64,000 nucleotides of DNA from positions 239,568,001 through 239,632,000 of the forward strand of contig OZ024741.1 in the NCBI GenBank assembly GCA_964016885.1, written 5' to 3'. The stretch is from Eledone cirrhosa. Lineage: Eukaryota. The number at the start of each line of letters is the position of its first letter. Positions within the stretch are counted from its first letter, which is position 1. The notes under the pieces are model-generated. The model did not search any database and was not told where the DNA came from. It saw nothing but the letters and a program-made list of their open reading frames with translations. A program made the translations under genes and the position numbers. Below, piece by piece: positions 4,281 to 64,000 of the stretch.

Positions 4281-6659
4281 CTTTGTAGATTTTTGAAGAG
4301 ATCGATTCATTGTTGATATCTTCCAGTCTTCAGGATAGTAATGGCTTCTAGACTGACTATATCTGTCTGATATCTCTCCTCGATTACCTGACATCACAGA
4401 TACACTGTTGTTACCTTGATAGATCAACTGTCTCATCTCATTACGACATTGGTATGCCTGTTTCTCTTCTGTTGTTCTAGCAGAGTTATTTCTCACATTG
4501 TTACATCTCACAATACACAATGTTATAGAAACCACAATAGCTATAGATACTATCACAGCTGCTACTACAACGATAATCAACAATGTTGCATCTATTGTGT
4601 TATCAGTTGGTACATGGACAGCTGTGAACATTGGTGATGTCTTGTTACTAACAGTCAGTGTTAAAGAGACACTAGTTGTTGCTGACAGAACTGGAGTACC
4701 ACTGTCTTTCACAACAAACTCCAGTTGATATGATCCAGCATCATTTTGGTAAACTGTGCGAGAGTAAGATAAGACACCGGTGAATGAGTCCAGTTTAAAT
4801 AACTGTCTCTCATTACCTGAGAGGATTTCATACCTGAGAAAAGCATTCATGTGACTGTCTATATCAGAGGCTTTCAGAAGTGTGATGTCATTCTTACTTT
4901 GTGGATGATAGTGGACATCAAGAGTGAAAGGGTCAACACTAGGAAATGTAAAATATGGAACATTATCATTTTTATCTAATACTTCCACTTCAACATTCAC
5001 TGTGTTATTTAGAGATGGTGTTCCATTGTCTTTAACTAAAACCTCAAAGTCATAGAAATCTCTGTGTTCTCTGTCTAAAGATTGGTTTGTTGAAATAAAG
5101 CCAGAGTTGATAATCTGGAATGGTAGATGATATTGGTGTTTATTTCTCAGATAATAACTTAATTCACCTCCCTTACCAACATCTGGGTCTGTAGCATTGA
5201 TAAAACCAATAGGGAAATTAGCTTTGTCATTCTCATAGGTAAGGAACTTGAATGTATCTTTGGTAAAGTGTGGTTTTACATCATTCACATCTAACACTTG
5301 TATTGAGAGATCTTTATCAGTTTTCAGAGAAGGTAATCCTTTATCTTGACAGGAGACAGTAAAGTGATAATGTTCCTGTGTCTCTCTGTCTACTGCTTTC
5401 TTTAGAACTATTTTATATTCCTTAGATCCCATTGACTGTAGTTTGAATGTATCATGTTTAATATCACAGCTGACCTCTCCATTGTGTCCAACATCATTAT
5501 CAGTGACCATCACATAAGCAATGAAACTACCAACTTTGATATCTTCCAGAATGGTAGCTGTGTTGTGATTCTCTGTAGAAATATAGTTGACATCAATATT
5601 TGGAGGATTGTTGTGTTGGTTGATAATATTTACAATAACAGTTGCTATGGAGCTAAGAGGAGGACTGCCATTATCTCTGGCTTCTATGAATAATTTAAAA
5701 GATTCTTCCATATCAATTTCTGAAGACTTAGCTAAATATAACTTTCCTGTATTTTCATCTAAATCAAAGTATCTTTTCATTTTCTCTGCAGTTTTCCTTG
5801 CAAAATAGAAAGATATTTTACCATTCCTGCCAATATCTAAATCATTGGCAGATAATGTCACTACTGGAATATTCTTTTTATGGTCATGTTGTATAGAGAC
5901 ATTGTAGATACTTTTGGAAAATTGTGGTTTATTATCATTTTCATCTTTTACAGATATTTTAACATTTAAAATACTTTGTTTTGGTGGAGTTCCTCCATCT
6001 TTAGCAATGACTTCAATATTGTAACTGTCTTTCTTTTCTCGGTCTAATTTATCTTCTAAAATAATACCTATTGTTGATATTTCATCAGTTTCTTTGGAAA
6101 CTGATAAAGAAAAATTTCCATTATGCTTTTTTAATTCATATGTAATTAAGCTGTTCTCATACCCCACATCTTTGTCAATGGCGCTGGGAATGGGTCTCTT
6201 CAAACCCTTACCATCTCCATCCCTGAAATACACAGTGATTTCTTTCTCAGGAAACTCAGGTTGGTGGTCATTGATGTCTTCTATTATGACTTTAATTTTT
6301 AATATCTTCATAAATGTCTTGGATTTGTGAACAGCAACTTTAATTATTTCAAAACATTCTTTCTCATAACTACACACAGACTCAGCATCCAATGTCTGTA
6401 CAGTGTACAGTTTACCAGTTTTCGTCACATTAAACAATTGTTCTCCTTTTTGTTGTAGTTGACTAAATGTAATTAAATCCTTATTCTTTAAGGAGTTATC
6501 TGATGTCTGTAAGTCAGTAGCAATGTCCCCTACATAAGTATAGGGAATACTCTCTTCTTTAACATGGTATGTGATATGTTCACTTAAATAACAGTGGAAT
6601 AAAGTCAGTAAAATACACAGAAATAACATCTCTGCTCTTGATGTTAATACAGAGTCCAT
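4281..6659 (-). CDS. Pcdh: Protocadherin gene A, large coding exon (signal peptide, EC1-EC6, TM, proximal cytoplasmic tail)
   Basis: 805-aa ORF with six cadherin repeats (DINDHQPEF, LDRE, DENDNKP, DVNDVKP, DKNDN), the EC1 C-X5-C loop (CSYEKEC) and a TM helix LLIIVVVAAVIVSIAIVVSITLCIV. Similarity among paralogues stops exactly at KSTK|GTAAA (phase-0 donor, exon end 4281). Acceptor TTTCAG| upstream at 6685. Confidence 0.96.
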
Positions 6660-6840
6660 GGAAAATGATTGCTTAAATATTCAATCTGAAACAAACAAAA
6701 ATTATTTATCATACCTCAATTAACTGTTTGTAAAATAAATATATTCAAAAATTATTTATCATATTGATGAGCTATTGTCATATTTGCATAGAGAGAAATT
6801 GTATTATACCTCAAGTAACTGTTTGTAAAATAAATATATT

Positions 6841-6930
6841 TGTTTCTACGTTTGGCACAAGGCCAGCAATTACCCAGTGCATTACTGGTACTTTATTTTA
6901 TCGACCCCGTAAGGATGAAAGGCAAAGTTA
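6841..6930 (-). mobile_element. 5'-truncated Nin/Deu-domain SINE (duplicated copy at ~13999-14088)
   Basis: 3' half of the SINE flanked by TSD AAAATAAATATATT. Confidence 0.8.
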
Positions 6931-8951
6931 AAAATAAATATATTAATCAATGAAAGTGATTGTACAAAATTTCAATATTTGTATTCTTATTTATGGATAT
7001 AAACAAGTCACAATTTTGTGGTCTTTCTATCATGACATTCGCAGTACATATGGTGTGTAGTTTCAGATAAGAAGTCTCTTGTAAACATAACATGTGTAAT
7101 TCCTAAGGTAGATTACTTTGTGTCATAAATATAAGATAGCCCTATTATGAGACAGGTGATAGCTACATCACATCAGATTTAGATGAATTTCTGCAGATTG
7201 TTTAATTAAACTTCAGTGTAGCTTATTTATATTTTATATAGGAATTGAAAATTGGTTGTAATCCAGAAAATTGTTAAAACGTAAACAACTCAGAGGGAAA
7301 CAAGTAGGAAGTTATGAATTATCTCCCTTATATATACTACAAAGTACACCTAAATTATGTTTAACAGAACAAAAATCTACAGGAATATCTAAGTCACTAT
7401 CTTTCCATTGATATTGATGTATTACTATTAATAAAGTTAGATTTCTATTTTAAACTGAAAAAAAAATATTCTAAATTGTGAACATTTATATTCAATAAAA
7501 TTATAATCTTAACATCTTGGATATAATAATAATAATTAAATTATTGTGTACAGTGCTCAGGTGCACTACAACTCATCAAGGAATTCTTTAAAACAATATC
7601 AATTACCACTTGACTCCTCTATTTACTACATAAACAGCTTCCTTATGTGTCAAAAACCACTTTTATATAACAGAGGTTCATTAGATTAAAATCTAACAAT
7701 TAGCTGAAACATTTTAATTTTACATATAAAATCCAAATATATTTTTTGCATAAATATCAAACTAATTTTAAATCATACCACCTAGTGCTAGATATATTTA
7801 CTGAGAATAAATAACTAGATAATAAGCATTTGTTTTCTATAGTTGAAAATCGTTGTAAAAGGAGGGAAAAATCTAAAACAAATTCTAAAACAAATTTTTT
7901 TATGACTTATTCTGAAGTAGAAATAAAATATTTGGTACCATCTTTTTAAGTCATACTGTTATTTAGTCATGTAGATGAATATTTTTTACATAAAACCTAC
8001 CAGATTGATGTTATTTAACCCGATGTAAGATCCTATCTAGCAGACATTATCAAAAGCATTCCAGTCAAGACCACAACCTCTATTTTTCCAAATATAGTTC
8101 CTTTGTGTTACAAAAGGAAATATATGACATCTTACAGTAGTATCGAAATAGATAACAGGCCATAATTAATATATCTATATTCTTTACAAAGATTTAAGAC
8201 TACAGATTCCTCATTTTTTACTGAATTAATGAATATTAATTTTTGTAATGTAATTGGTAATTATTCAAATATACTTCTGACATGTTACCATAAAAGTATA
8301 AAGATACATATTTTGTTGAAACAAATCATACACAAATATATGTAAGGCAAATTTGTAAATTTTAACAAGTAAAAGTAATTTATATAAAAGAAACTATTAA
8401 CACTAATTTTCACATGATATTATAGCAATCAGTAGACATATACAAAAAATAATGATTTACACACGTTCATAGATTTTACATATACACAGTTATTTCAGAT
8501 ATGAAAATACTAATATTTTATAACAAATTTTCTTATTTATAAAGAATATTTAGGTAAAACCTATATTATTGAATGTATTTCAATGATATTCTAGTTCAAT
8601 ATTTAGTATGTAATAAGACCATACAATGTCAGACTGAATAATTTAGTAAAAATATATAATGATGAGCTATGTTAAAATATGATAAACAAGATAAATATAG
8701 TAAACAAATCAAAGATGACAGCAAATATTTTCAGAAGTATGTTATATTAAACTATAATCCAACATATATTCCTCTCTCTCACTGTTTCTTACAAAATAGT
8801 TGATAGCCATGTTGGTAAAGAAGACATTCAATGAGAACTAGCACAGATCTAATATGGCCACCATTACAATATATTTTGATGTTATAATATACTATGTATG
8901 AAGTGATTATTTTACATGACTTGATAAATAATAAGCAATGATAAAACTTAC

Positions 8952-9450
8952 ATTCATTGTGTAAAATCCTTTGTTATAAACTGTGAGTTGGTCCCAATGT
9001 TCTGTTAATGGTTGTCTGTGTCACTGCTGCTATGGTGTGACAATGGCTTCATGTTGATGGAATAGTGTTGGTAGTGAGTCAGTGGGAACCAGCAGTTCCT
9101 CTCAGTCTTCTGTGTATGTGTGATGTTTACTGAGTGTGAGTGTGAGTGTGTGTGTGAGAGAGAGAGGGGTGGGGGAGGGTGATGCTTACTTCAGCCTCAC
9201 TCAGACTAGATGTGTTTCCCCTCACAGAAAAGAGGGAGAGAGAGAGAAGACACAATATCAGCTCCACTAACAGTCAGCCAAATGTCTATATAATAATATG
9301 TCTGGTGTAGAGAGACTGACATAGAAATACTTAGAAGAGAGAGGTTATATTAACAAAATATGGCTGATGTTGTTAATGTGTAATATGTAATATAAATACA
9401 AAATTAATAATAATAGTTAGTGTGTGTCTGGCTTAATTATAAACTAACTT
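8952..9450 (-). promoter_or_regulatory. Promoter and non-coding first exon (~8952-9268) of gene A
   Basis: Same cassette; |GTAAGT donor at 8952 pairs with the acceptor at 6685. Confidence 0.7.
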
Positions 9451-9563
9451 TGCCACAGAAGATATATTTCAGAAAATTTATAGATGTTATATTACCAATA
9501 TCAAATTTATTTTCTGAAATAACAAAATTTACAATATCATATATTTATTATTTATTAGCAGGG

Positions 9564-9965: not shown

Positions 9966-10084
9966 TTAACTAGCAACAACATCTGGTGTTGAAGGTAACT
10001 GTCTCTCTGGAGGTTTCACATATCTGTCTTGGTAATGGTCTCTCTCATTGTTGCTTGACACATCAGGTGGGACACCATAGATAC
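9966..10084 (-). CDS. Pcdh: Gene B terminal coding exon
   Basis: TTTCAG| acceptor, 119 nt to TAA. Confidence 0.88.
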
Positions 10085-10281
10085 CTGAAAGAAATAATTC
10101 AATTCAACTTACCACATAGTTCACATAGACAATAGATATCTTCTGACATTAATAATCCATCTCTTGTCCAAAATGAAAATTATTAAAAAGGTTCTTTTTG
10201 ACCATCCCTAAAATTCTTCAAAATTATAAACATAAATTATTATAATGATAATAATAAACATGGAAAATGAAATGTTTTTAC

Positions 10282-10432
10282 CTGACATTGCCGGTATTTC
10301 TTCATACTGTCTACTTGACCTTTCACTCCAGCACTGTCCACTACTCTTACGACTAGTCAGTGTATCAGTGGGATAGTTAGACGATGGTCTGTTGTCTCCA
10401 TAAGATGTCACCTCTATAGGCTGACTGTATTT
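10282..10432 (-). CDS. Pcdh: Gene B cytoplasmic exon (151 nt)
   Basis: CAGCAG| acceptor, |GTAAAA donor, paralogous to 3410-3560. Confidence 0.9.
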
Positions 10433-10739
10433 CTGCTGTAAAGTTAGTTAAAACAGATTGTAAAGGTATTTATAATATTGGATATGAAATGTATGCAATA
10501 TCTAGGTAAAAATCAGTACATGTTTACTGTTGAAATATGGTACAACCATCTACAAAAATATCAATTGTCTTTTACAAATGTTCCATTGATTTCACTACAT
10601 TTTTGTCAAATTTCTGCAGGACAATTCTCAAGGGGATTTCAAACTTCCAACTTAAATCCTTCCTTCCAATCCTACCACACAAAATGGATTCATTATACAT
10701 TAGTCAAAGTCTTATGTATTGCAAATAATTATTTCATAG

Positions 10740-10908
10740 CACACTGTAAGTGTGGTTGGTGTTAGCAAGGGCATTCAGCCATAGAAAACCAGCCAGAAAC
10801 ACCCCTATATGAGCGAAACACTGTCACCCAACAACTTGCCTCAAAATAGGATCCACCTAACCCATGCTAGTGTGGAAGATATACGTTAATCGATGATGAT
10901 GATGATGA
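10740..10908 (+). mobile_element. RTE LINE/SINE 3'-tail fragment (duplicated at ~17858-18026)
   Basis: GGTTGGTGTTAGCAAGGGCAT...CCCATGCTAGTGTGGAAGATATACGTTAATC(GAT)n matches the LINE 3' end. Confidence 0.75.
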
Positions 10909-11488
10909 CTTTTAATGAATAAAGGTTCACATGGTCTTTTGACCTCACCGTTAATGGTGATAATATAAATTTATATTGTGCATGAGTTTGCAGTGCAAGG
11001 TAGGAATGACAAGAGGTACAGAATTGAGGAGATTTGTCTTCTGGATAACAGGTTAGAAGAATCTGAATAGTACAAAGTAGAGAGGTTCCACAATTTTAGA
11101 CAACAACCTATTGAGAAATAAATTGCATTCTGCAATGTATGAAATGTATGCAATATCTAGATTTAAATTAGTCATGTTAACTGTTGAAATATGGTACAAC
11201 TATCACCAAAAATATCAAATGTCTTTTACAAAAATGGTGGTAGCCTTGTTAAACATTTATTTACCAACAAATAGCTTACAATTAGCAAACAGCAGTAATT
11301 CATGGATTAACTCACATTTAAAACAAACAAAATAGAATATTTATTTCTATGTCACTATTATTTCTAACAAGACATATTCTATTAAAAACTCTGGAGAAAT
11401 AAATATTAGCCTAAATTGGTAATTTAAATAGTAACAAAGAGAATAAACATTATTTAACAGCAGATAAAAGATATTGAATAGACTTTAC

Positions 11489-13867
11489 CTTTGTAGATTT
11501 TTGAAGAGATCTGTTCATTGTTGATGGTTTCCAGTCTTCAGGATAGTTATGGCTTCTAGACTGACTATATCTGTCTGATATCTCTCCTTGATTACCTGAC
11601 ATCACAGATACACTGTTGTTACCTTGATAGATCAACTGTCTCATCTCATTACGACATTGGTATGCCTGTTTCTCTTCTGTTGTTCTAGCCGAGTTATTTC
11701 TCACATTGTTACATCTCACAATACACAATGTTATAGAAACCACAATAGCTATAGATACTATCACAGCTGCTACTACAATGATAATCAACAATGTTGCATC
11801 TATTGTGTTATCAGTTGGTACATGGACAGCTGTGAACATTGGTGATGTCTTGTTACTAACAGTCAATGTTAAAGAGACACTAGTTGTTGCTGACAGAACT
11901 GGAGTACCACTGTCTTTCACAACAAACTCCAGTTGATATGATCCAGCATCATTTTGGTAAACTGTACGAGAGTAAGATAAGACACCAGTGAATGAGTCCA
12001 GTTTAAATAATTGTTTCTCATTACCTGAAAGGATTTCATACCTGAGAAAGGCATTCATGTGACTGTCTATATCAGAGGCTTTCAGAAGTGTGATGTCATT
12101 CTTACTTTGTGGATGATAGTGGACATCAAGAGTGAAAGGGTCAACACTAGGAAATGTAAAATATGGAGCATTATCATTTTTATCTAATACTTCCACTTCA
12201 ACATTCACTGTGTTATTTAGAGATGGTGTTCCATTGTCTTTGACTAAAACCTCAAAGTCATAGAAATCTCTGTGTTCCCTGTCTAAAGATTGGTTTGTTG
12301 AAATAAAACCAGAGTTGATAATCTGGAATGGTAGACGATATTGGTGTTTATTTCTCAGATAATAACTTAATTCACCTCCCTTACCAACATCTGGGTCTGT
12401 AGCATTGATAAAACCAATAGGGAAATTAGCTTTGTCATTCTCATAGGTAAGGAACTTGAATGTATCTTTGGTAAAATGTGGTTTTACATCATTTACATCT
12501 AACACTTGTATTGAGAGATCTTTATCAGTTTTCAGAGAAGGTAATCCTTTATCTTGACAGGAGAGAGTGAAGTGATAATGTTCCTGTGTCTCTCTGTCTA
12601 CTGCTTTCTTTAGAACTATTTTATATTCCTTAGATCCCATTGACTGTAGTTTGAATGTATCATGTTTGATATTACAGCTGACCTCTCCATTGTGTCCAAC
12701 ATCATTGTCAGTGACCATCACATAAGCAATGAAACTACCAACTTTGATATCTTCCAGAATGGTAGCTGTGTTGTGATTCTGTGTAGAAATATAGTTGACA
12801 TCAATATTTAGAGGATTGTTGTGTTGGTTGATAACATTAACAATAACAGTTGCTATAGAACTAAGAGGCGGACTGCCATTATCTCTGGCTTCTATGTATA
12901 ATTTAAAAGCTACTTCTGACTTAATTTCTGATGATTTGGCTAAATATAATTTTCCGGTATTTTCATCTAAATCAAAGAATCTTTTCATTTTTTCTGAAGT
13001 TGTCCTTGCAAAATAGTAAGATATTTTACCATTCCTACCAATATCTAAATCTTTGGCAAATAATGTCACTACTGGAATATTCTTTTTATGTTTATGTTCT
13101 AAGGAAACATTGTAGATACTTTTGGAAAATTCTGGTTTATTATCATTTTCATCTTCTACAGATATTTTAACATTTAAAATACTTTGTTTTGGTGGAGTTC
13201 CTCCATCTTTAGCAATGACGTCAATATTGTAATTGTCTTTGTTTTCTCTGTCTAATTTATTTTCTAAAATAATTTCTAATGTTGATATTCCACCAGCTTC
13301 CTTAGAAACACTTAGTGAAAATTGTCCATCATCTTTCAGTTCATATTTAATAAATCTGTTTTGATACCCAACATCTTTATCCACAGCATTGGGTATTGCT
13401 CTCTTGGTGTTTTTACCATCAGTTTCAGAAAACTGAATATTGACTTGTTCAGTTGGAAACTCAGGTTGGTGGTCATTGATGTCTTCTATTATGACTTTAA
13501 TTTTTAATATCTTCATAAATGTCTTGGATTTGTGAACAGCAACTTTAATTATTTCAAAACATTCTTTCTCATAACTACACACAGACTCAGCATCCAATGT
13601 CTGAACAGTGTACAGTTTACCTGTTTTCGTCACATTAAACAATTGTTCTCCTTTTTGTTGTAGTTGACTGAATGTAATTAAATCCTTATTCTTTAAGAAG
13701 GAGCTATCTGATGTCTGTAAGTCAGTAGCAATGTCCCCTACATAAGTATAGGGAATACTCTCTTCTTTAACATGGTATTTGATATGTTCACTTAAATAAC
13801 AGTGGAATAAAGTCAGTAAAATACACAGAAATAACATCTCTGCTCTTGATGTCAATACAGAGTCCAT
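11489..13867 (-). CDS. Pcdh: Protocadherin gene B, large coding exon
   Basis: 805-aa ORF with the same domain layout; donor after KSTK at 11489; acceptor at 13893. Confidence 0.96.
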
Positions 13868-16062
13868 GGAAAATTACTGTTTAAATATTCAATCTGAAAC
13901 AAACAAAAATTATTTATCATATTGATGAGGTATTGTCATATTTGCATAGAGAGAAATTGTATTATACCTCAATTAACTGTTTGTAAAATAAATATATTTG
14001 TTTCTACGTTTGGCACAAGGCCAGCAATTACCCAGTGCATTACTGGTACTTTATTTTATCGACCCCGTAAGGATGAAAGGCAAAGTTAAAGATAAATATA
14101 TTAATCAATGAAAGTGATTGTACAAAATTTCAATATTTGTATTCTTATTTATGGATATAAACAAGTCACAATTTTGTGGTCTTTCTATCATGACATTCGC
14201 AGTACATATGGTGTATAGTTTTAGATAAGAAGTCTCTTGTAAACATAACGTGTGTAATTCCTAAGGTAGATTACTTTATTGTGTCATAAATATAAGATAG
14301 CCATATTCTGAGCCAGGTGATAGCTACATCACATCAGATTTAGATGAATTTATGCAGATTGTTTAATTAAACTACAGCGTAGCTTATTTATATTTTATAT
14401 AGGAATTGAAAATTGGTTGTAATCCAGAAAATTGTTAAAATGTAAACAACTCAGAGGGAAACAAGTAGGAAGTTATGAATTATCTCCCTTATATATACTA
14501 CAAAGTACACCTAAATTATGTTTAACAAAACAAAAATCTACAGGAATATCTTAGTCACTATCTTTCCATTGATATTGATGTATTACTATTAATAACATTA
14601 GATTTCTATTTTAAACTGAAAAAAAAAATATTCTAAATTGTGAACATTTATATTCAATAAAATTATAATCTTAATATCTTGGATATCTCCTTGAATAGGA
14701 ATACTTTAAAACAATATCAATTATCACTTGACTCCTCTATTTACTACATAAACAGCTTCCTTATGTGTCAAAAACCACTTTTATATAACAGCTTCATTAG
14801 ATTAAAATCTAACAATTAGCTGAAACATTTTAATTTTACATATAAAATCCCAATATATTTTTTGCATAAATAAACTAATTTTAAATCATACCATCTAGTG
14901 CTAGATATATTTACTGAAAATAAATAATTAGATAATAAGCATTTGTTTTCTATAGTTGAAAATCGATGTAAAAATAGGAAAAAATCTAAAACAAATTCTA
15001 AAACAAATTTTTTTATGACTTATTCTGAAGTAGAAATAAAATATTTGGTACCATCTTTTTAAGTCATACTGTTATTTAGTCATGTAGATGAATATTTTTT
15101 ACATAAAACCTACCAGATTGATGTTATTTAACCCGATGTAAGATCCTATCTAGCAGACATTATCAAAAGCATTCCAGTCAAGACCACAACCTCTATTTTT
15201 CCAAATATAGTTCCTTTGTGTTACAAAAGGAAATATATGACATCTTACAGTAGTATCGAAATAGATAACAGGCCATAATTAATATATCTATATTCTTTAC
15301 AAAGATTTAAGACTACAGATTCCTCATTTTTTTACTGAATTAATGAATATTAATTTTTGTAATGTAATTGGTAATTATTCAAATATACTTCTGACATGTT
15401 ACCATAAAAATATAAAGATACATATTTTGTTGAAACAAATCATACACAAATATATGTAAGGCAAATTTGTAAATTTTAACAAGTAATTTATATAAAAAAA
15501 CTATTAACACTAATGTTCACATGATATTATAGCAATCAGTAGACATATACAAAAAATAATGATTTACACACATTCATAGATTTTACATATACACAGTTAT
15601 TTCAGATATGAAAATACTAATATTTTATAACAAATTTTCTTATCTATCAAGAATATTTAGGTAAAACCTATATTATTGAATGTATTTCAATAATATTCTA
15701 GTTCAATATTTAGTATGTAATAAGACCATACAATGTCAGACTGAATAATTTAGTAAAAATATATAATGATGAGTTATGTTAAAATATGATAAACAAGATA
15801 AATATAGTAAACAAATCAAAGATGACAGCAAATATTTTCAGAAGTATGTTATATAAAACTATAATTCAACATATATTCCTCTCTCTCACTGTTTCTTACA
15901 AAATACTTGATAGCCATGTTGGTAAAGAAGACATTCAATGAGAACTAACACAGATCTAATATGGCCACCATTACAATGTTATATTTTCATGTTATAATAC
16001 AGCTATATATGAAGTCATTATTTTACATGACTTGATAAATAATAAGCAATGATAAAACTTAC

Positions 16063-17073: not shown

Positions 17074-17192
17074 TTAACTGGCAACAACATCTGGTGTTGA
17101 AGGTAACTGTCTCTCTGGAGGTTTCACATATCTGTCTTGGTAATGGTCTCTCTCATTGTTGCTTGACACATCAGGTGGGACACCATAGATAC
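17074..17192 (-). CDS. Pcdh: Gene C terminal coding exon
   Basis: TTTCAG| acceptor, 119 nt to TAA. Confidence 0.88.
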
Positions 17193-17399
17193 CTGAAAGA
17201 TATAATTCAATTCAACTTACCACATAGTTCACATAGACAATAGATATCTTCTGACATTAATAATCCATCTCTTATCCAGTCTGATATAAAATGACAATTA
17301 TTAAAAAGGTTCTTTTTGACCATCCCTAAAATTCTTCAAAATTATAAACATAAATTATTATAATGATAATAATAAACATGGAAAATGAAATGTTTTTAC

Positions 17400-17550
17400 C
17401 TGACATTGCCGGTATTTCTTCATACTGCCTACTTGACCTTTCACTCCAGCACTGTCCACTACTCTTACGACTAGTCAGTGTATCAGTGGGATAGTTAGAC
17501 GATGGTCTGTTGTCTCCATAAGATGTCACCTCTATAGGCTGACTGTATTT
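17400..17550 (-). CDS. Pcdh: Gene C cytoplasmic exon (151 nt)
   Basis: Canonical AG/GT boundaries; paralogous sequence. Confidence 0.9.
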
Positions 17551-18583
17551 CTGCTGTAAAGTTAGTTAAAACAGATTGTAAAGGTATTTATAATATTGGA
17601 TATGAAATGTATGCAATATCTAGGTAAAAATCAGTACATGTTAACTGTTGAAATATGGTACAACCATCTACAAAAATATCAATTGTCTTTTACAAATATT
17701 CTAATGATTCCACTACATTATTGTCAAATTTCTGCAGGACAATTCACAAGGGGATTTCAAACTTCCAACTTAAATCCTTCCTTCCAATCCTACCACACAA
17801 AATGGATTCATTATACATTAGTCAAAGTCTTATGTATTGCAAATAATTATTTCATAGCACACTGTAAGTGTGGTTGGTGTTAGCAAGGGCATCCAGCCAT
17901 AGAAAACCAGCCAGAAACACCCCTATATGAGCGAAACACTGTCACCCGACAACTTGCCTCAAAATAGGATCCACCTAAACCATGCTAGTGTGGAAGATAT
18001 ACGCTAATCGATGATGATGATGATGACTTTTAATGAATAAAGGTTCACATGGTCTTTTGACCTCACCGTTAATGGTGATAATATAAATTTATATTGTGCA
18101 TGAGTTTGCAGTGCAAGGTAGGAATGACAAGAGGTACAGAATTAAGGAGATGTGTCTTCTGGATAACAGGTTAGAAGAATCTGAATAGTACAAAGTAGGG
18201 AGGTTCCACAATTTTAGACAACAACCTATTGAGAAATAAATTGCATACTGCAATGTAATATGTAATATATATATGAATCTTCTAGTGGTATCCTTCTTAA
18301 ACATTCTTTTACCAACAAATAGCTTACAATTAGCAAACAGCAGTAAATCTTGGATTAACACACATTTAAAACATAACCCGTCTAAACCCATGCTAGCATG
18401 GAAGATAGACGTTAAACGAATATATACAATATTTATTTCTATATCATGACAATTATTTTTAACAAGACATATTCTTTTAAAAACTCTGGAGACATAAAAA
18501 TTTGCCTAAATTGGTAATTTAAATAGTAACTAAGAGAATAAACATTATTTAACAGCAGATAAAAGATATTGAATAGACTTTAC

Positions 18584-27217: not shown

Positions 27218-27235
27218 TGAATTTAATAACAGACA

Positions 27236-27584: not shown

Positions 27585-27612
27585 CAGACAAAGATAAATA
27601 AAATTGCTTTAC

Positions 27613-39235: not shown

Positions 39236-39292
39236 CGGTGTTGATTCTATTCTTGTTTTATTAATTCCATTTCATTACTATTGATAACTTCA

Positions 39293-45534: not shown

Positions 45535-45653
45535 TTAACTGACAACAACATCTGGTGTTGAAGGTAACTGTCTCTCTGGAGGTTTCACATATCTGTCTTG
45601 GTAGTGGTCTCTCTCATTGTTGCTTGACACATCAGGTGGGACACCATAGATTC
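45535..45653 (-). CDS. Pcdh: Gene F terminal coding exon
   Basis: TTTCAG| acceptor, 119 nt to TAA. Confidence 0.88.
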
Positions 45654-46539
45654 CTGAAACAAGTACCAAGTACATCAATTCAACTTACCACAGAGTTCAT
45701 AAAAACGATATTTACTATGATTAGATCATCAATCTATTAACTACTACACCCACCAACCTGAAATATAAATCAATAATCATTAAAGACATTGTTTTACCAT
45801 TCCTCAGAAATCATAATCAATTCAGTGATGCAATGATTTTATCCTAGATTAGATTGGTTAAATGTCAGTTCAATGAGTGATATGACTCTCTGTGCCATAT
45901 TATCATTGTCAGTTGTACATTAATTTTTTAATGTTGGCATAAATTAGATAAGACTAATATATGGTTGTATACTACAACCAAATGACTTTCCAGAAACCAA
46001 CCAAACCAGCTTTTTAAGGAACAGAGTTTCACATGTCTAATCTTTGAGTGTGTGGATATTTATGTATGCAGAATGTAAACATTCCCACCTCTGATAGTGA
46101 ATGCAAAGATAAGACAGCTGTCTAACAAATACATAGGCATAAATATGCACATATATACATCATAATAATCATTTTCATTTCATATCTGCTGTTCCAAGTT
46201 GGCATGATTTGGGAGCAGTTGTTACACACAAAGTGCATAGTTAATTGGACCTACTACCTTCCTAGATGGTTCAGTGTAACATATTTGGCTCAATTCATTC
46301 CATTGGAGCACAAACACACAAACAATGGAATTCCTTATAGATTTTATCAACCACATTCACTAATAGGGTATAGGATGGACAAAGGCTATAGTAAGAGACA
46401 CTTGCCAGAGACTAAATAGAACTCAAGTCCACATGCTTGTGAAGAATAAAGTATCAGCTAACATATAAAGTTGAATAATAAAGACATTAATAGAAATAAT
46501 GAAATTAATAACAATCATGAATGAATTAAATGTTTTTAC

Positions 46540-46690
46540 CTGACATTGCTGGTATTTCTTCATACTGTCTACTTGACCTTTCACTCCAACACTGTCCACT
46601 GCTCTTACGACTGGTCAATGTATCAGTGGGATAGTTAGAAGATGGTCTGTTGTCTCCATAAGATGTCACCTCTATTGGTTGACTGTATTT
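46540..46690 (-). CDS. Pcdh: Gene F cytoplasmic exon (151 nt)
   Basis: TAGCAG| acceptor, |GTAAAA donor. Confidence 0.9.
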
Positions 46691-47342
46691 CTGCTACCAA
46701 ATATAGTTTTTGTACATGAAATACACCCAATACCTAGATATTGATAGTTACATGAATGTTGTTAAAATATTAGACCATTGCCTACAAAAGCTTCAAGTAT
46801 CTGACCACTTTCAATCGTAACATAGAAAATGTATCCACAATAATTAAGTTATAATATATACTAATAAAGAGAGCAGCACATGCCTTTTCATGTTTCTGTA
46901 TTGTTGGTAGCGTAAGTTTATATTGTGGTGTTATAGCAATCAGGAAATTTGACTTATGAAACCATCTAAATTTTTCAAAAGATGCTATTGACAAATATTA
47001 TATTAACAAATCTACAAAGTAAGAATTTCAAGCACTAAAAATTACAAATACACCTGTGATTAATATGGTGTTGGAATTGTTAGAGATTCATTACCAAAAA
47101 ATAGCTAACAGGTAAACAGCAGTAAATCTTGGATCAGTTCACTTTTCAAAAACTAACAGAAAATATTTTTTTATTGTGACATCAAACTGGTATTTTAAGA
47201 ACTAGTGATGTTCTATACGAAACTACATCAGAATCTATACAGTAAACTACAATTGGTAATTTACAATATAGCTGTAAAATTTAAAATATTCAGCTTTATC
47301 AATCTTATTATTAACAAATATAAAATATAAAATAGATTTTAC

Positions 47343-52891: not shown

Positions 52892-53010
52892 TTAACTGGC
52901 AACAACATCTGGTGTTGAAGGTAACTGTCTCTCTGGAGGTTTCACATATCTGTCTTGGTAATGGTCTCTCTCATTGTTGCTTGACACATCAGGTGGGACA
53001 CCATAGATTC
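52892..53010 (-). CDS. Pcdh: Gene G terminal coding exon
   Basis: TTTCAG| acceptor, 119 nt to TAA. Confidence 0.88.
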
Positions 53011-53354
53011 CTGAAACAAGTACATCAACACAACTTACCATTTAGTTCACATAGATAGACAATGATTATTTTATTGATAATAATCATCAATTGTTTATCC
53101 ACAACATCCACTGAACTAAGAGAGAAAATAACAATCATAATAGAATTCATACAAGATCATATATTTACATCTTTACAATCTTAATAAACCACTAATTAGT
53201 TAAATAAAATAATATCTTTAGTAATTTAAAATCAATATTAAATTACTTGAACTTTTTGTCTTGAATTGACAACAAACATAGTGCTTTGTTTAGGACTTAC
53301 TCTGATATGTAACACTGAGAAAGACCATAAATATTTATGAAGATATTGTTTTAC

Positions 53355-53502
53355 CTGACATTGCTGGTATTTCTTCATACTGTCTACTTGACCTTTCACT
53401 CCAACACTGTCCACTCTTATGACTGGTCAATGTATCAGTGGGATAGTTAGAAGATGGTCTGTCATCTCCATAAGATGTCACCTCTATTGGTTGACTGTAT
53501 TT
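53355..53502 (-). CDS. Pcdh: Gene G cytoplasmic exon (148 nt; one Ser codon deleted)
   Basis: Canonical boundaries; 3-nt in-frame deletion relative to paralogues. Confidence 0.89.
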
Positions 53503-53529
53503 CTGATGGAAAATATAGTTACAAGATAA

Positions 53530-53665
53530 AGTATAAAGATATCATTTATGACAATGTACCTAAAATATACTAAATGTCCTAGATATTGATAGGTACATGT
53601 ATCTATCAATATCTAGGACATTTAGTATATTTTAGGTACACTGTCGTAAATGATATTTTTATACT
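53530..53665. repeat. 136-bp near-perfect palindrome
   Basis: Two 68-bp arms, no spacer (centre TACA|TGTA), 4 transition mismatches. Confidence 0.93.
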
Positions 53666-54043
53666 CTACTGTTAAAATACTGGACCATTATCTACTAAAA
53701 CATCAATTGTATAAAACTTTCTGTATGACCACTTTCAATCATACCACAGAAAATGTATCCAGTACAGGTTCCAAATCATTATTTGCTATCATACTCCAAG
53801 GTATTTGTTTTTTAGGTCTACCTTTATTGGTGTTACATTCATATTGTGTGAGTTTAGGGTACACACTTGTAGTTATTCCAGGCCAATAATTTGGAAGGTT
53901 TCTTTATAGAAAGACAATTTACAAAACTATATGAATTCCACAATGTTAGCTAAGATCATACTGACATATAATATGACAGCTTGGCAAAAAACAATGTGAT
54001 TCAATACAGCCTTGAATTTCCTGGTATTTGGCTTTTTAGATAA

Positions 54044-54900
54044 ATGAGGGTCAGCTGAAAGGTTCATTGGCTGACTAAGATACTCTCATGGAGTGTGACC
54101 AAATGAGTTTTATTTTTCAACATTAACAGCAGATATGACATTATCACTGCGAAACTGGTTCTCAGCCAAGTGTTTTTCGTGTCAGGGAACAGATGATAAT
54201 CAGATGGGCAAAATGAGAAGAATAAGGAGGGTGATCAATTAGTTCAAAGCCAGTCATGCACAGCAGCCATTGAAACCAAGGACTTGTGTTGGAGCATTGT
54301 CCTAATAAAGCAAGACTCCTTTCATCAGATTTCCTGGGCATATGGTCTTGATAGACTTTCATAACTGCCTTAGCGAGATGGCATAATACTCTCCATTGAT
54401 GGTGTGGCTCTTTTGAAGATGGCCAATAAACATGGATTGCCAATAAACATGAATAGCCAATAAACATGGATTGTCTCTTTGTCTGACTCAAAGTGAAGAA
54501 CCCAACACTCATCCTGGGTTAGGAAACATTCAAAGAAACCAGCTGGATCTGTCTCAAATAATGTCAGATTTCCCTGTGATGTGATCAGCTTGGCGTGCTT
54601 TTGATCAGGTGTCAGAAAACATGGCACTCATCAAGCAGAATCCTTCGTCATACCAAGTTCTTTGTGTAGAATACTCTCAACTCTCACACGGGACACACTA
54701 ATAGCATTGGGTATTTGATTAATAGTCAACTGCTCTCATCCATCACCATGCAGTAAACACGATCAATGTTTTCCTCAGTTGCAGGACTTCTAGAACTCGA
54801 GTCATTTTGAAAGCTCTCCCTTCCCCACCTAAATTCAGTCGCCCACTTTTACACTGTTGATAAAGCTGGAGCATTATCCCTAATGTAGCAACCATTAATT
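54044..54900 (-). mobile_element. Decayed Tc1/mariner (mariner-type) DNA transposon in intron 2 of gene G
   Basis: Transposase remnants APALSTV.KWATEF, TEENIDRV, FLTPDQK, FLTQDECWVLHF, DHPPYS; mariner-like TIR start GAGGGTCAGCTGAAA at ~54046. Confidence 0.88.
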
Positions 54901-55142
54901 TTAACATGTAAACAAGTGTAAATTTTGATTTATCTTAGATTTCCAAAAACAGACAATATATTTTTATCTCCAGATCATAATGCTTTGTGTTTGAAGACAT
55001 TTAAATATTAAATCGAATTTATTATTAATAGTAATTTAAATCAGTAATTTAAACATTAATTTGGTGATCAAACACATTCAGTTTTATCATGCTTAATTAA
55101 ACATTATTTACTAACAGATAGAAAATATACAATAGAATTTAC

Positions 55143-57497
55143 CTTTGTGGATTTCTGAAGAGATCGGTTCATTGTTGGTGTCTTCCAGTCTTCAGCATAG
55201 TAATGACTTCTAGACTGACTATATCTGTCTGATATCTCTCCTCGATTACCTGACATCACAGATACACTGTTGTTACCTTGATAGATCAACTGTCTCATCT
55301 CATTACGACATTGGTATGCCTGTTTCTCTTCTGTTGTTCTAGCTGAGTTATTTCTTACATTGTTACATCTCACAATACACAATGTTATAGAAACCACAAT
55401 AGCTATAGATATTATCACAGCTGCTACTACAATGATAATCAACAATGTTGCATCTATTGTGTTATCAGTTGGTACATGGACAGCTGTGAACATTGGTGAT
55501 GTCTTGTTACTAACAGTCAGTGTTAAAGAGACACTAGTTGTTGCTGACAGAACTGGAGTACCACTGTCTTTCACAACAAACTCCAGTTGATATGATCCAG
55601 CATCATTTTGGTAAACTGTGCGAGAGTAAGATAAGACACCAGTGAATGAGTCCAGTTTAAATAACTGTCTCTCATTACCTGAGAGGATTTCATACCTCAG
55701 AAAAGCATTCATGTGACTGTCTAGATCAGAGGCTTTCAGAAGTGTTATGTCATTCTTACTTTGTGGATGATAGTGGACATCAAGAGTGAAAGGGTCAACA
55801 CTAGGAAATGTAAAATATGGAGCATTATCATTTTTATCTAATACTTCCACTTCAACATTCACTGTGTTATTTAGAGATGGTGTTCCATTGTCTTTGACAA
55901 AAACCTCAAAGTCATAGAAATCTCTGTGTTCTCTGTCTAAAGATTGGTTTGTTGAAATAAAGCCAGAGTTGATAATCTGGAATGGTAGACGATATTGGTG
56001 TTTATTTCTCAGATGATAACTTAATTCACCTCCCTTACCAACATCTGGGTCTGTAGCATTGATAAAACCAATAGGGAAATTAGCTTTGTCATTCTCATAG
56101 GTAAGGAACTTGAATGTATCTTTGGTAAAGTGTGGTTTTACATCATTCACATCTAAGACTTGTATTGAGAGATCTTTATCAGTTTTGAGAGGAGGTAATC
56201 CTTTATCTTGACAAGAGACAGTAAAGTGATAATGTTCCTGTGTCTCTCTGTCTACTGCTTTCTTTAGAACTATTTTATATTCCTTAGATCCCATTGACTG
56301 TAGTTTGAATGTATCATGTTTGATATTACAGCTGACCTCTCCATTGTGTCCAACATCATTGTCAGTGACCATCACATAAGCAATGAAACTACCAACTTTG
56401 ATATCTTCCAGAATGGTAGCTGTGTTGTGATTCTGTGTAGAAATATAGTTGACATCAATATTTGGAGGATTGTTTTGTTGGTTGATAACATTAACCATAA
56501 CTGTTGCTATGGCACTGAGAGGAGGAATTCCATTATCTTTAGCTTCAATATACAATTTAAAAAACTCTTCCATATCAATTTCTGAAGATTTAGCTAAATA
56601 CAACTTTCCAGTGTTTTCATCTAAATTGAAGTGTTTCTTCAGCTTTTCAACAGTTTTTCTAGCAAAATAGAAAGATATTTTACCATTCCTGCCAATATCT
56701 AAATCATTGGCAGATAATGTCACTACTGGAATATTCTTTTTATGTTTATGTTCAATAGAGACATTGTAGATACTTTGAGAGAATTGCGGTCTGTTATCAT
56801 TTTCATCTTCTACAGATATTTTAACATTTAAAATACTTTGTTTTGGTGGAGTTCCTCCATCTTTAGCGATGACTTCAATATTGTAGCTGTCTTTCTTTTC
56901 CCTGTCTAATTTACCATCTAAGATTATTTCTAATGTTGATATTCCATCAGTTTGTTTGGAAACTGATAAAGAAAAATATTCATTATGCTTGTTTAATGCA
57001 TATGTAATTAAGCTGTTCTCATATCCAACATCTTTGTCAATAGCACTGGGAATGGGTCTCTTCAAACCTTTCCCATCTCCATCCCTGAAATATAGAGTGA
57101 TGTCTTTCTGAAGAAACTCAGGTTGGTGGTCATTGATGTCTTCTATTATGACTTTAATTTTTAATATCTTCATAAATGTCTTGAATTTGTGAACAGCAAC
57201 TTTAACTATTTCAAAACATTCTTTCTCATAACTACACACAGACTCAGCATCCAATGTCTGAACAGTGTACAGTTTACCTGTTTTCGTCACATTGAACAAT
57301 TGTTCTCCCTTTTGTTGTAGTTGACTAAATGTAATTAAATCCTTATTCTTTAAGAAGGAGCTATCTGATGTCTGTAAGTCAGTAGCAATGTCCCCTATAT
57401 ATGTATAGGGATTACTCTCTTCTTTAACATGGTATATAATATGTTCACTCAGATAACAGTGGAAGAAAGTCAGTAAAATACACAGAAATAATAACAT
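55143..57497 (-). CDS. Pcdh: Protocadherin gene G, large coding exon
   Basis: 797-aa ORF; donor at 55143; acceptor TTGCAG| at 57554. Confidence 0.96.
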
Positions 57498-58389: not shown

Positions 58390-58950
58390 ACAATAATTGT
58401 TTCTACGTTAGGCACAAAGCCAGCAATTTTCCCAGTGTATTATTGGTACTTTATTTTATCGACCCCGTAAGGATGAAAGGCAAAGTTAATCTCGGTGGGA
58501 TTTGAACTCAGAATGGAAAGGGCCGTAACTCTATGGGTCAAAGCACGGCGTCTGACCCTCTGCCGATACTGCCAATCCACTGAATAATAATTGTTTCTAC
58601 TTTAGGCACAAGGCCAGCAATTACCCGGTGCATTACTGGTACTTTATTTTATCGACCCCGTAAGGATGAAAGGCAAAGTCAACCTCAGCGGGATTTGAAC
58701 TCAGATCGTAAAGGGACGTAACTATGCTGGAAAGCATGGCGTCCGACCCTCTACCGATACTGCTGAAAAATAATTGTTTCTACTTTAGGCACAAGGCCAG
58801 CAATTACCCAGTACATTACTGGTACTTTATTTTATCGACCCCATAAGGATAAAAGGCAAAGTTAACCTCGACGGGATTTGAACTCAGACCGTAAAGGGAC
58901 GTAACTATGCTAGAAAGCATGGCGTCCAACTCTCCACCGATACTACCAAT
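58390..58950 (-). mobile_element. Three head-to-tail Nin/Deu-domain SINEs
   Basis: Three ~185-bp copies, each beginning AATAATTGTTTCTAC on the plus strand. Confidence 0.88.
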
Positions 58951-61120: not shown

Positions 61121-61239
61121 TTAACTGGCAACAACATCTGGTGTTGAAGGTAACTGTCTCTCTGGAGGTTTCACATATCTGTCTTGGTAATGGTCTCTCT
61201 CATTGTTGCTTGACACATCAGGTGGGACACCATAGATTC
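61121..61239 (-). CDS. Pcdh: Gene H terminal coding exon
   Basis: TTTCAG| acceptor, 119 nt to TAA. Confidence 0.88.
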
Positions 61240-61609
61240 CTGAAACAAGTACATCAACACAACATATTTAGTTCACATAGACAGAAAATAGGTATTTACT
61301 GACATTAGTCATCAATATTTTGTCAATTACATCCAATTAACTAAGATAGAAAATGACAATCATAATAGAATTAATATATCTTTACAATCTTAATAAACAA
61401 CTGATAAGTTAAATAAAACAATATACTTGGTAATTTAAATAATTTAGATATTTTAGATCAATATTAAATTCTTTGTACTTACAGTGTTTGAATTGCCAAA
61501 ATGGGTAAAACTAATATATTTCAGAAGTCATTAAAACACTTTGTTTAGGACTTACTCTGATATGTAACAAAGAGAAAGATGACAAAAATTAATGAAGATA
61601 TTGTTTTAC

Positions 61610-61760
61610 CTGACATTGCTGGTATTTCTTCATACTGTCTACTTGACCTTTCACTCCAGCACTGGCCACTGCTCTTATGACTGGTCAATGTATCAGTGGG
61701 ATAGTTAGAAGATGGTCTGTTGTCCCCATAAGATGTCACCTCTATAGGTTGGCTATATTT
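61610..61760 (-). CDS. Pcdh: Gene H cytoplasmic exon (151 nt)
   Basis: CAGCAG| acceptor, |GTAAAA donor. Confidence 0.9.
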
Positions 61761-62422
61761 CTGCTGTAAAATATAGTTACAATATAGTATAAAGATTTTC
61801 TGAATGTGGACTTCAAATACATTCGATTTCTAGCTAATAATGGGTACTGTTGGAATATTTGACTATTATCAACAAAAGCATCAATTGTATAGATCCTTCC
61901 TACCAAACCACTTTCAATCATACCAGAAAGAATGTATAAGACATTGTAAGAATTCATTGAATAGCTTACTCTGAAGAAGAAATGTATACATGATTTTTCG
62001 AGACATGTCTTTACTGGTGATAGTATAAGTATATATTAAGGTGGAAGGATTAGTCTTAATAGGCAGGAATGTTGACAAGTTGGACTACAGGTGTACAACT
62101 TACAAGAGACGTCTGAAATTACACAACGTTAGGTTCTTCCAAAACTATTCCTAAGATATTATTCACTAATGGTAAATTAGTCTGGCTAAAAATTCAATAT
62201 GATGTACTGCAATATATGTATGCATTTTTTATTGTTTCATTTAGCTTTCTTGATACATATACCAATATGCAAACAGCAGTAAATTGTACATTTATCACAA
62301 ATTTGATTTTAAAAAAGAATACATTTTTCATCGTGATATCATATTTTGGGGGGAAACAAACATTCTATACAAAAAACAATGGGAAATTATACAGTAAACT
62401 GAGAAAGTATAAAATAGTTTAC

Positions 62423-64000
62423 CTTTGTGGATTTCTGAAGAGATCTGTTCATTGTTGATGTCTTCCACTCTTCAGGATAGTAATGACTTCTAGACTGACT
62501 ATATCTGTCTGATATCTCTCCTCGATTACCTGACATCACAGATACACTGTTGTTACCTTGATAGATCAACTGTCTCATCTCATTACGACATTGGTATGCC
62601 TGTTTCTCTTCTGTTGTTCTAGCTGAGTTATTTCTTACATTGTTACATCTCACAATACACAATGTTATAGAAACCACAATAGCTATAGATACTATCACAG
62701 CTGCTACTACAATGATAATCAACAATGTTGCATCTATTGTGTTATCAGTTGGTACATGGACAGCTGTGAACATTGGTGATGTCTTGTTACTAACAGTCAG
62801 TGTTAAAGAGACACTAGTTGCTGCTGACAGAACTGGAGTACCACTGTCTTTCACAACAAACTCCAGTTGATATGATCCTGCATCATTTTGGTAAACTGTG
62901 CGAGAGTAAGATAAGACACCAGTGAATGAGTCCAGTTTAAATAACTGTCTCTCATTACCTGAAAGGATTTCATACCTGAGAAAAGCATTCATGTGACTGT
63001 CTATATCAGAGGCTTTCAGAAGTGTTATGTCATTCTTACTTTGTGGATGATAGTGGACATCAAGAGTGAAAGGGTCAACACTAGGAAATGTAAAATATGG
63101 AACATTATCATTTTTATCTAATACTTCCACTTCAACATTCACTGTGTTATTTAGAGATGGTGTTCCATTGTCTTTGACAAAAACCTCAAAGTCATAGAAA
63201 TCTCTGTGTTCTCTGTCTAAAGACTGGTTTGTTGAAATAAAGCCAGAGTTGATAATCTGGAATGGTAGACGATATTGGTGTTTATTTCTCAGATAATAAC
63301 TTAATTCACCTCCCTTACCAACATCTGGGTCTGTAGCATTGATAAAACCAATAGGGAAATTAGCTTTGTCATTTTCATAGGTAAGGAACTTGAATGTATC
63401 TTTGGTAAAGTGTGGTTTTACATCATTCACATCTAACACTTGTATTGAGAGATCTTTATCAGTTTTGAGAGAAGGTAATCCTTTATCTTGACAAGAGACA
63501 GTAAAGTGATAATGTTCCTGTGTCTCTCTGTCTACTGCTTTCTTTAGAACTATTTTATATTCCTTAGATCCCATTGATTGGAGTTTGAATGTATCATGTT
63601 TGATATTACAGCTGACCTCTCCATTGTGTCCAACATCATTGTCAGTGACCATCACATAAGCAATGAAACTACCAACTTTGATATCTTCCAGAATGGTAGC
63701 TGTGTTGTGAATCTCTGTAGAAATATAGTTGACATCAATATTTGGAGGATTGTTGTGTTGGTTGATAACCTTAACCATAACAGTTGCTATGGAACTGAGA
63801 GGAGGGCTCCCTCCATCTTTTGCTTCAATGTATAATTTTAACGTGCTTTTAGTGTCAATTTCTAATGGTTTTATTAAGAATATTTTTCCAGTATTTTCAT
63901 CAACACTAAAGTATCCTTTCATCTTCTCTTCAGTTTTTGGACTAAAATAAAAAGATGTTTTACCATTCCTACCAATATCTAAATCATTGGCAGATAACGT
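62423..64000 (-). CDS. Pcdh: Protocadherin gene H, large coding exon (5' part outside window; visible from mid-EC3)
   Basis: Frame is open to the window edge (TLSANDLDIGRNGKTSFYFSPKTEEKM...); donor at 62423. Confidence 0.94.

Follow-up and report, generated by a model that had tools for sequence, protein, structure and literature searches.

A Tandem Array of Protocadherin Genes in Eledone cirrhosa

The DNA analyzed here (the window) comprises 64,000 nucleotides of the genome of the octopod Eledone cirrhosa (GenBank assembly GCA_964016885.1, contig OZ024741.1, positions 239,568,001 to 239,632,000 of the forward strand) and contains 8 of the 46 octopod protocadherin genes of a head-to-tail array. 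Based on six-frame translation and alignment of the paralogues, all eight, which we designate A to H, are full genes on the minus strand. We find that these genes are most diverse in the second and third of their six extracellular cadherin (EC) domains, that the remaining domains appear to be kept alike by gene conversion, and that certain residues far apart in the protein covary in a way that fits an antiparallel, self-binding dimer.

The open reading frames encode a signal peptide, a Cadherin_2-type EC1 followed by five further cadherin repeats, a transmembrane segment (TM), and a cytoplasmic tail, which is the domain content of a six-EC protocadherin. The top protein matches are all from octopods (Octopus and Argonauta), with 84 to 86% identity to O. 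sinensis and Argonauta proteins. The best fold matches are protocadherin EC1-4 structures, with ~30% identity to vertebrate EC1-4, and Pcdh8.1, 10, 17, 18, and 19 are among the best matches by sequence and fold. The coding span of gene A (2864 to 6629) consists of a large exon that carries the signal peptide, EC1-6, the TM, and the start of the tail and ends in a donor at 4281, followed by an exon at 3409 to 3560/3563 and a last exon at 2864 to 2982. The coding span of gene B (9966 to 13837) is made up of exons at 11489 to 13837, 10282 to 10435, and 9966 to 10084. The other spans are those of C (17074 to 20935), D (24695 to 30826), E (34592 to 38246), F (45535 to 49694), G (52892 to 57497), and H (61121 to 64000), the last of which is cut by the window end, with ~780 bases more beyond it. 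When 664 kb of the contig was tiled, 46 intact large exons were obtained, all on a single strand and every one with a phase-0 GT donor at its end. The two most distant genes were dropped and the remaining 44 were analyzed (array 1); 32 of these (g02 to g33, including A to H) have one EC1 type in common and form the core set. Gene H was completed with DNA flanking the window for comparisons, EC limits were taken from linker motifs, and residues are numbered from the mature N terminus of gene E (38192).

Each gene has its own copies of two tail exons and, likewise, its own promoter and leader-exon block. The possibility of constant exons common to several genes was rejected, since every gene has its own tail exons. 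The conserved promoter and noncoding leader-exon block of gene A lies at 8600 to 9560 on the minus strand, with a splice donor after 8952. Corresponding minus-strand donors lie at 1991, 16063, 23787, 33858, 44710, and 60376, and there are 47 blast matches to the block over 250 nt along the array. In contigs from two public runs, the leader is joined from its donor at 8952 to the large exon, and a contig from another organism's run joins the large exon (4281 to 4344) to the next exon (3409 to 3563). Tandem AG acceptors of the first tail exon at 10435, 17553, 46693, and 61763 would yield isoforms with or without one Gln, like annotated O. sinensis isoforms, and the other paralogues retain the second AG only. 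The last exon of gene E (34592 to 34700) is without four codons (HYQD) that are present in its neighbors.

Divergence of the Paralogues Domain by Domain

A first-pass annotation of the window had assigned EC2-EC3 coordinates in A to H that agree within ~20 bases with the limits set by the linker motifs. By those motifs, the EC2-EC3 regions (all minus strand) lie at 5610 to 6266 in A, 12818 to 13471 in B, 19913 to 20569 in C, 29804 to 30460 in D, 37221 to 37877 in E, 48672 to 49325 in F, 56472 to 57128 in G, and 63752 to 64405 in H, of which 63752 to 64000, the EC3 part, is in the window. Pairs among A to H differ at 22 to 66 of 220 EC2-3 residues, compared with 10 to 23 of the 548 residues elsewhere. 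In the eight window genes, synonymous divergence (dS) is 0.464 in EC2 and 0.399 in EC3, versus 0.086 in EC1, 0.059 to 0.067 in EC4-6, 0.007 in the stalk and TM, and 0.098 in the first cytoplasmic part. The 32 core genes give 0.481 in EC2 and 0.377 in EC3, versus 0.070 in EC1, 0.077, 0.046, and 0.056 in EC4, EC5, and EC6, respectively, and 0.075 at the start of the tail. When all 44 genes are compared, EC1 dS rises to 0.43 and EC4-to-tail dS stays at 0.01 to 0.09. The domains fall into three tiers: EC4 to the tail is uniform across the array, EC1 is uniform inside sub-arrays, and EC2-3 is free.

The first-pass annotation had claimed that diversity is confined to EC2-EC3 and that the other domains are near-identical at synonymous sites. 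The first claim is right about the contrast in dS (0.38 to 0.48 versus 0.05 to 0.08) but must be narrowed, in that EC1 is uniform only within a sub-array and EC2 F-G and EC3 B, though within EC2-3, are also homogenized. As for the second, synonymous identity is high but amounts to ~91 to 94% outside the TM. The many charge changes ascribed to EC2-3 are evident, since charge-changing differences make up 51% of all differences in EC2 and 40% in EC3, compared with 32% in EC1 and 24% in EC4-6. GC content at third codon positions (GC3) in the core genes is 0.28 to 0.31 in the uniform domains and 0.21 to 0.24 in EC2-3, which is the same direction as the higher GC3 reported for converted protocadherins of fugu (PMC1852091).

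A second array (array 2), represented by 30 close genes after exclusion of three outliers, lies 0.3 to 0.6 Mb off and is ~60% identical to array 1. It repeats the domain pattern, with dS of 0.60 in EC2 and 0.53 in EC3 versus 0.03 to 0.08 in EC4-6. The EC2-EC3 diversity pattern generalizes to two arrays and three octopod lineages.

The EC3-EC4 linker is NQHNN, not DxNDN, in gene E (37200 to 37235) and in all paralogues, and the EC3 calcium motifs PE and DRE are degenerate in the paralogues. The DxND motif, which is present at the vertebrate EC3-EC4 linker and wanting in the octopod array, occurs at this linker in none of 84 other octopod protocadherins, compared with 83 to 84 of 84 at the three other linkers. 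Judging from these motifs, the EC3-EC4 linker is likely to be a calcium-poor, flexible hinge.

Evidence for Exon-Limited Gene Conversion

The intron ends are diverged by 0.31 to 0.45, whereas the two small tail exons are diverged by 0.035 and 0.048 (27 of the 32 core genes scored; in the other 5, the motif search missed one exon), and identity falls to ~0.6 within 40 to 60 nt outside each exon edge. For comparison across species we used 109 proteins (44 from this genome, 28 from Argonauta, 26 from O. sinensis, 10 from O. vulgaris, and 1 from O. bimaculoides), with 14 duplicate or short proteins removed from the set. In EC4-6, the nearest neighbor comes from the same species group for 107 of 108 proteins, compared with 67 of 108 in the EC2 A-B block; species labels require 3 changes on the EC4-6 tree, compared with 27 on the EC2-3 tree (~51 with shuffled labels). 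In the outlier genes g34 to g37, EC1-3 finds its best match in other species (0.76 to 0.83, versus 0.56 to 0.65 with genes of the same genome), and EC4-6 has 0.95 to 0.99 identity to own-genome paralogues. The same A-B cassette types are found in O. sinensis, O. vulgaris, and Argonauta. Introns that are ~30 to 45% diverged, together with EC4-6 sorting by species and EC2-3 mixing species, indicate old genes that have been overwritten by conversion except in EC2-EC3. On this evidence we conclude that exon-limited homogenization by conversion, not recent duplication, explains the uniform domains, as the first-pass annotation had supposed for the scaffold and tail, and that the EC2-3 variants predate the species splits. 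In vertebrates, regional conversion that spares EC2-EC3 is an established phenomenon (PMC4978886, PMC1852091).

Recent tandem duplication with strong positive selection on EC2-EC3, and no conversion, would accord with the octopod PCDH burst at 8 to 14 Ma inferred from paralogue distances (PMC9795677). A few pairs also represent recent duplication: EC2-3 is identical between g25 and g27, and 4 residues in it separate g23 from g26 (contig positions 239,440,000 to 239,480,000), so that, by sequence, each pair would have a common specificity. However, the excess is found at synonymous sites, the introns are old, the EC2-3 variants cross species, and no omega (dN/dS) above 1 is found. This account is already contradicted by the intron and cross-species results, and we regard it as very improbable. 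Because the introns and EC2-3 are old, whole-gene trees and dates, such as that "recent burst," likely reflect conversion and not gene age.

Falsely uniform constant regions could also arise if paralogue reads had been merged during assembly or polishing, since such arrays are prone to misassembly, as noted in fugu (PMC1852091), and one public run used here may be the source sample. However, the same pattern stands in the protein sets annotated for O. sinensis and O. vulgaris and for Argonauta, and runs of two other organisms yield the constant part as long, collapsed contigs (513 and 1,209 nt), which makes an artifact unlikely; in addition, mosaic differences persist in the constant regions and the flanking introns are distinct. 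We consider this the least probable of all the explanations.

Conversion mediated by cDNA is not favored, given that identity decays over 40 to 60 nt into the introns and that 27 of 32 core genes yielded both tail exons, introns included. Conversion would act at the DNA level and depend on homology, and this need for homology would cause it to stall in introns and in diverged loops. At EC4 residues ~341 to 400 (36990 to 37170 in gene E), the core DNA is 95 to 97% identical between the two arrays, synonymous sites included, which suggests conversion between arrays on a face that would bind EC1.

A Mosaic of Old Variants in EC2-EC3

Within EC2-3, r2 falls from 0.22 to 0.09 within 50 to 100 nt, which is a pattern of short-tract mosaicism, and with the region divided into seven blocks, 31 of the 32 core genes carry distinct codes. 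Diversity is greatest in the EC2 A-B block (6183 to 6254 in A; 37794 to 37865 in E), with a nucleotide difference of up to 53%. Omega is 0.29 in EC2 and 0.35 in EC3, compared with 0.14 to 0.21 in the other EC domains. Positive selection on EC2-3 was rejected, since no class with omega above 1 was found in either array, and the raised dN/dS anticipated in the first-pass annotation is not upheld. Based on these estimates, the EC2-3 signal appears to be one of old retained variants, not of fast adaptive change; dN and dS rise together there, as would be expected of old variants that resist overwriting.

Covariation of Distant Residues

Residue pairs at least 50 positions apart were scanned for covariation. 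Among 30 array-1 genes (two recent duplicates removed), positions 144 (EC2 B-C loop) and 263 (EC3 C-D loop) are Ser and Lys in 21 and Arg and Thr in 9. Within the window, S144 and K263 are found in A (6150 to 6152 and 5793 to 5795), D, F, and G, and R144 and T263 are found in B (13355 to 13357 and 13001 to 13003), C (20453 to 20455 and 20096 to 20098), and E (37761 to 37763 and 37404 to 37406); K263 of H is at 63935 to 63937. The two positions are never both basic in the 44 genes, 19 of which are basic at 144 only, 24 at 263 only, and 1 at neither. This rule holds in 28 of 28 Argonauta sequences, some of which use other residues (K/Q), as well as in 35 of 36 from O. sinensis and O. vulgaris, and different residues also satisfy it in the outlier genes. 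The r2 with R144 reaches a peak of 1.0 at each of the two ends and averages 0.05 to 0.18 in between; sites near 144 have a mean r2 of 0.16 with it, versus 1.0 for 263. None of 1,042 synonymous far pairs in array 1 is above an r2 of 0.38. Of 1,346 charge-marker pairs, 144/263 comes first in all three species groups, and over 15 independent tree pairs it is swapped in 10, opposite in 0, and unchanged in 5. The pair 164/300 ranks second, with K300 occurring only with E164 (8 of 8 genes here).

In array 2, two forms of the EC1 F-G hairpin match two forms of the EC4 339-342 loop in 21 of 22 type A genes, a link that spans ~750 nt of unlinked DNA. Residues 88 (EC1) and 347 (EC4) are of opposite charge in all 26 genes in which both are charged (from 30 genes here and 13 of other species). 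N172 (EC2) occurs with F309 (EC3) in the type A background and also in type B, which is deeply split from it, with contingency p values (3e-5 and 0.029, respectively) that ignore relatedness; 172/309 could be a within-chain contact.

By the topology of cadherins, the top of EC2 and the bottom of EC3, and likewise the tip of EC1 and the base of EC4, meet only in an antiparallel dimer. The coupled pairs would join just these parts, and the covariation likely fits an antiparallel EC1:EC4/EC2:EC3 trans dimer, which is the arrangement that the first-pass annotation had proposed.

The couplings might instead be leftovers of ancestral haplotypes, if EC2-EC3 simply diverged past the reach of conversion and then drifted under purifying selection. 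An omega of ~0.3 with no positive class, EC2-3 dS of the same order as intron divergence, and some long shared haplotypes are all consistent with such neutral escape, and the pattern in related species may have been inherited once. However, the low ceiling on r2 among synonymous far pairs in array 1 and the weak linkage of 144 to its own neighbors compared with 263 argue against it, as do the different residues by which Argonauta and the outlier genes satisfy the 144/263 rule and the recurrence of the domain pattern in a second array of ~60% identity. We therefore regard neutral escape as unlikely.

Mapping onto the Vertebrate Trans Interface

In vertebrate dimers, the interface consists of the EC2 A-B-E-D face and the EC3 C-F-G face; the EC2 D-E and EC3 C-D loops make contacts that vary, and the EC3 F-G loop makes a self-contact (PMC7082078, PMC5001838, PMC5106212). 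Contact between EC2 D-E and EC3 C-D is described in vertebrate dimers (PMC7082078), and Nicoludis et al. found that the EC1 β6-β7 (F-G) loop touches the EC4 loop after β1a (PMC5001838). Our position lists were made from the strands of a monomer model (pLDDT 86), with the side of the surface assigned by strand alternation, and were fixed after array 1 had been viewed and before array 2. The 57 trans-face positions are more variable than the 85 others in 4 of 4 gene sets (P values of 0.003, 0.024, 0.008, and 0.007), an excess that arises from the EC2 strands and from loops. Across paralogues, the whole faces of EC2 and EC3 show no significant complementarity in charge (rho of -0.27, P value of 0.13). 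Identification of the EC1/EC4 coupling with the vertebrate 84-338 pair was dropped, since 338 aligns with residue 358. A PDB search gave no structure showing a dimer of these octopod protocadherins.

Of 496 gene pairs in array 1, 14 have at most 2 differences on one face, as do 64 of the 435 pairs of array 2. Four pairs have an identical EC3 face with 6 to 8 EC2-face residues different, so both halves of the heterodimer would already be found in homodimers. Gene F, likewise, is nearly identical to H and g04 in EC3 but carries another EC2 A-B cassette. EC2-EC3 diversity, especially that of the A-B cassette, could serve other partners (heterophilic protocadherins or ligands) or affinity tuning, with broad binding. 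The A-B cassette shuffles freely against EC3. Were every A-B cassette compatible with every EC3, heterodimers would also be expected, unless the outcome is settled by self-contacts at the two-fold axis; in addition, the ~21 PCDH transcripts of an O. vulgaris neuron include some that are cell-type specific (PMC9712504). On the other hand, far coupling within a gene is expected for self-binding and not for outside ligands, few array-1 pairs come within 2 differences on either face, and the variable self-contact position 306, by analogy with its equivalent P318 of Pcdh10, could break heterodimer symmetry. We judge service to other partners to be about as unlikely as neutral escape.

Other Features of the Window

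Broken frames of a non-LTR retroelement, presumably RTE-like, lie at 25614 to 26630, within the last intron of D, and at 40387 to 42839, between F and E. A very high-copy short repeat is found upstream of A and B (6840 to 6930 and 14030 to 14090), and a similar short repeat forms a three-copy, 183-nt tandem array at 58392 to 58944. Near contig positions 239,238,800, 239,672,800, and 239,739,000, the intact array is flanked by protocadherin copies that are broken or partial.

Discussion

We consider that exon-limited conversion, combined with selection that keeps together the matched halves of a likely antiparallel self-binding surface, is probably the best explanation of these sequences. The genes would be old full-gene duplicates whose exons have been copied over one another, with EC2-EC3 retaining ancient shuffled cassettes. 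The coupled pairs would touch across cells in the EC1:EC4/EC2:EC3 dimer, so that a conversion moving one half alone would be selected against. The outcome would be a set of binding classes that prefer their own kind, all built on the same scaffold and signaling tail, likely for neural wiring.

A number of results weigh against this explanation. When positively selected sites were sought with separate trees per block, M2a, fit from one start, was no better than M1a; omega grids put no weight above 1 at the best fit in array 1 and in six blocks of array 2, with 3 to 8% above 1 appearing in the grid when branch scales were too short. The coupled pairs came out of a scan and were placed at the EC2 top and EC3 bottom and at the EC1 tip and EC4 base by cadherin topology alone. 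Other far pairs (164/223/294) also have an r2 of 1.0, which indicates that shared descent of haplotypes exists, and the link between EC1 F-G and EC4 339-342 fails in 7 of 8 type B genes. No linkage of the EC2 A-B cassette to EC3 was detected (Mantel r of -0.03 to 0.05, mutual information z of 0 to 1.2, region mean z of ~0). On the EC3 strands, the trans face is no more variable than the far face (P values of 0.10 to 0.90), and array 1 varies greatly in the EC2 C-D and EC3 E-F loops despite their position off the canonical interface. None of 14 pairs mapped from vertebrate contacts survives correction (smallest uncorrected P value, 0.048), and the pair 164-296, chosen a priori from delta2 protocadherins, is like-charged in 11 of 44 genes and is not kept. 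Finally, replacement of V560 by Lys suggests that the vertebrate-type cis interface has been lost, though another cis surface is possible. The proposal in the first-pass annotation that variable residues lie on the trans interface is thus correct as a general enrichment but not for the EC3 strands or for the two off-interface loops. Its view of EC2 and EC3 as one recognition surface is favored by the coupled pairs and not by the independent shuffling of the A-B cassette.

Vertebrate clustered protocadherins carry their binding specificity in EC2/EC3. Like the octopod genes, they form a tandem array with a large exon for EC1-6 and the TM and with identity lowest in EC2-EC3 (PMC1852091, PMC4978886, PMC5106212, PMC5001838, PMC8901172), and they also have lineage-specific homogenization of EC4-6, higher GC3, and variable EC2 D-E and EC3 C-D loops. 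In contrast, vertebrate alpha and gamma genes have variable first exons spliced to common constant exons, whereas octopod genes have their own leader and tail exons, which conversion keeps similar; that each gene has its own tail exons agrees with PMC9068888. The octopod EC2-3 is a fine cassette mosaic, whereas little conversion of EC2 and EC3 is described in Xenopus and mouse. At the vertebrate EC5-EC6 cis interface (Y532 and V560; PMC7082078), the octopod residues, aligned to gammaB4, are Phe and Lys, and the vertebrate model of self-recognition requires cis dimers and strict trans specificity (PMC8901172). A search of the window for a CTCF consensus, with at most 2 mismatches, gave 0 matches versus 2.1 expected by chance. 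In O. vulgaris, each neuron has ~21 PCDH transcripts, among them both broad and cell-type-specific ones (PMC9712504), and these counts do not show stochastic promoter choice.

The array is one of the coleoid cephalopod sub-arrays, which likewise consist of full-gene duplicates in one orientation (Albertin 2022, PMC9068888; Styfhals 2019, PMC6339937; Jiang 2022, PMC9795677). Cephalopod arrays, their independent origin (taken here, with respect to the vertebrate cluster, from PMC9068888 and PMC10084454), full-gene duplication, and suspected conversion have already been published (PMC9068888, PMC6339937, PMC10084454, PMC9795677). Within the cephalopod literature that we covered, which lay outside Albertin 2015, Wang and Ragsdale 2017, Noonan 2004, and the supplements of Albertin 2022, we found nothing on the domain pattern, trans-species cassettes, coupling, or the EC3-EC4 linker, and our literature search found no binding or structural data on cephalopod protocadherins. 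A replicate array was sought in squid, whose sub-arrays expanded separately, and in cuttlefish, and the representative search was dominated by Fat/Dachsous-size proteins, with 9 of 10 candidates from octopods.

Nonclustered delta-protocadherins dimerize in trans through antiparallel EC1-4 and lack the clustered-type cis interface (PMC7082078) and in this resemble the dimer predicted for the octopod proteins. They differ in being few, dispersed genes, whereas the octopod genes form a converted array, and the delta2 pair of EC2 Arg and EC3 Glu (164-296) is not kept in array 1. The EC1-4 dimer is common to nonclustered protocadherins (PMC7082078) and predates the split between clustered and nonclustered genes (PMC5001838; bioRxiv 10.1101/493106), so it is likely ancestral in octopods too. 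By analogy, octopods likely inherited the geometry of the dimer from ancestral protocadherins, and the array, the conversion pattern, and the cassette shuffling are likely independent of vertebrates. The convergence on the vertebrate design claimed in the first-pass annotation accordingly applies to the array and probably not to the geometry of the dimer, which nonclustered protocadherins also have. Overall, the observation reported there is confirmed and its interpretation is partly supported.

What is new is that far-apart residues covary across recombining DNA, in a pattern that, from the sequences, appears antiparallel. We advance more tentatively, as a possibility that we would not yet favor, that octopods have their own neuronal self-recognition code, in which conversion would hold the scaffold and tail constant and reshuffle ancient EC2-EC3 cassettes into paralogue-specific homophilic keys, with charge-swap switches at 144/263, 164/300, and 88/347 and a calcium-poor EC3-EC4 hinge, and without constant exons or the vertebrate cis zipper. 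These results bear on whether cephalopods, in their large expansion of protocadherins, have a recognition code comparable to that of vertebrates. They offer sequence evidence for an antiparallel self-binding mode and name residue swaps that make the question directly testable.

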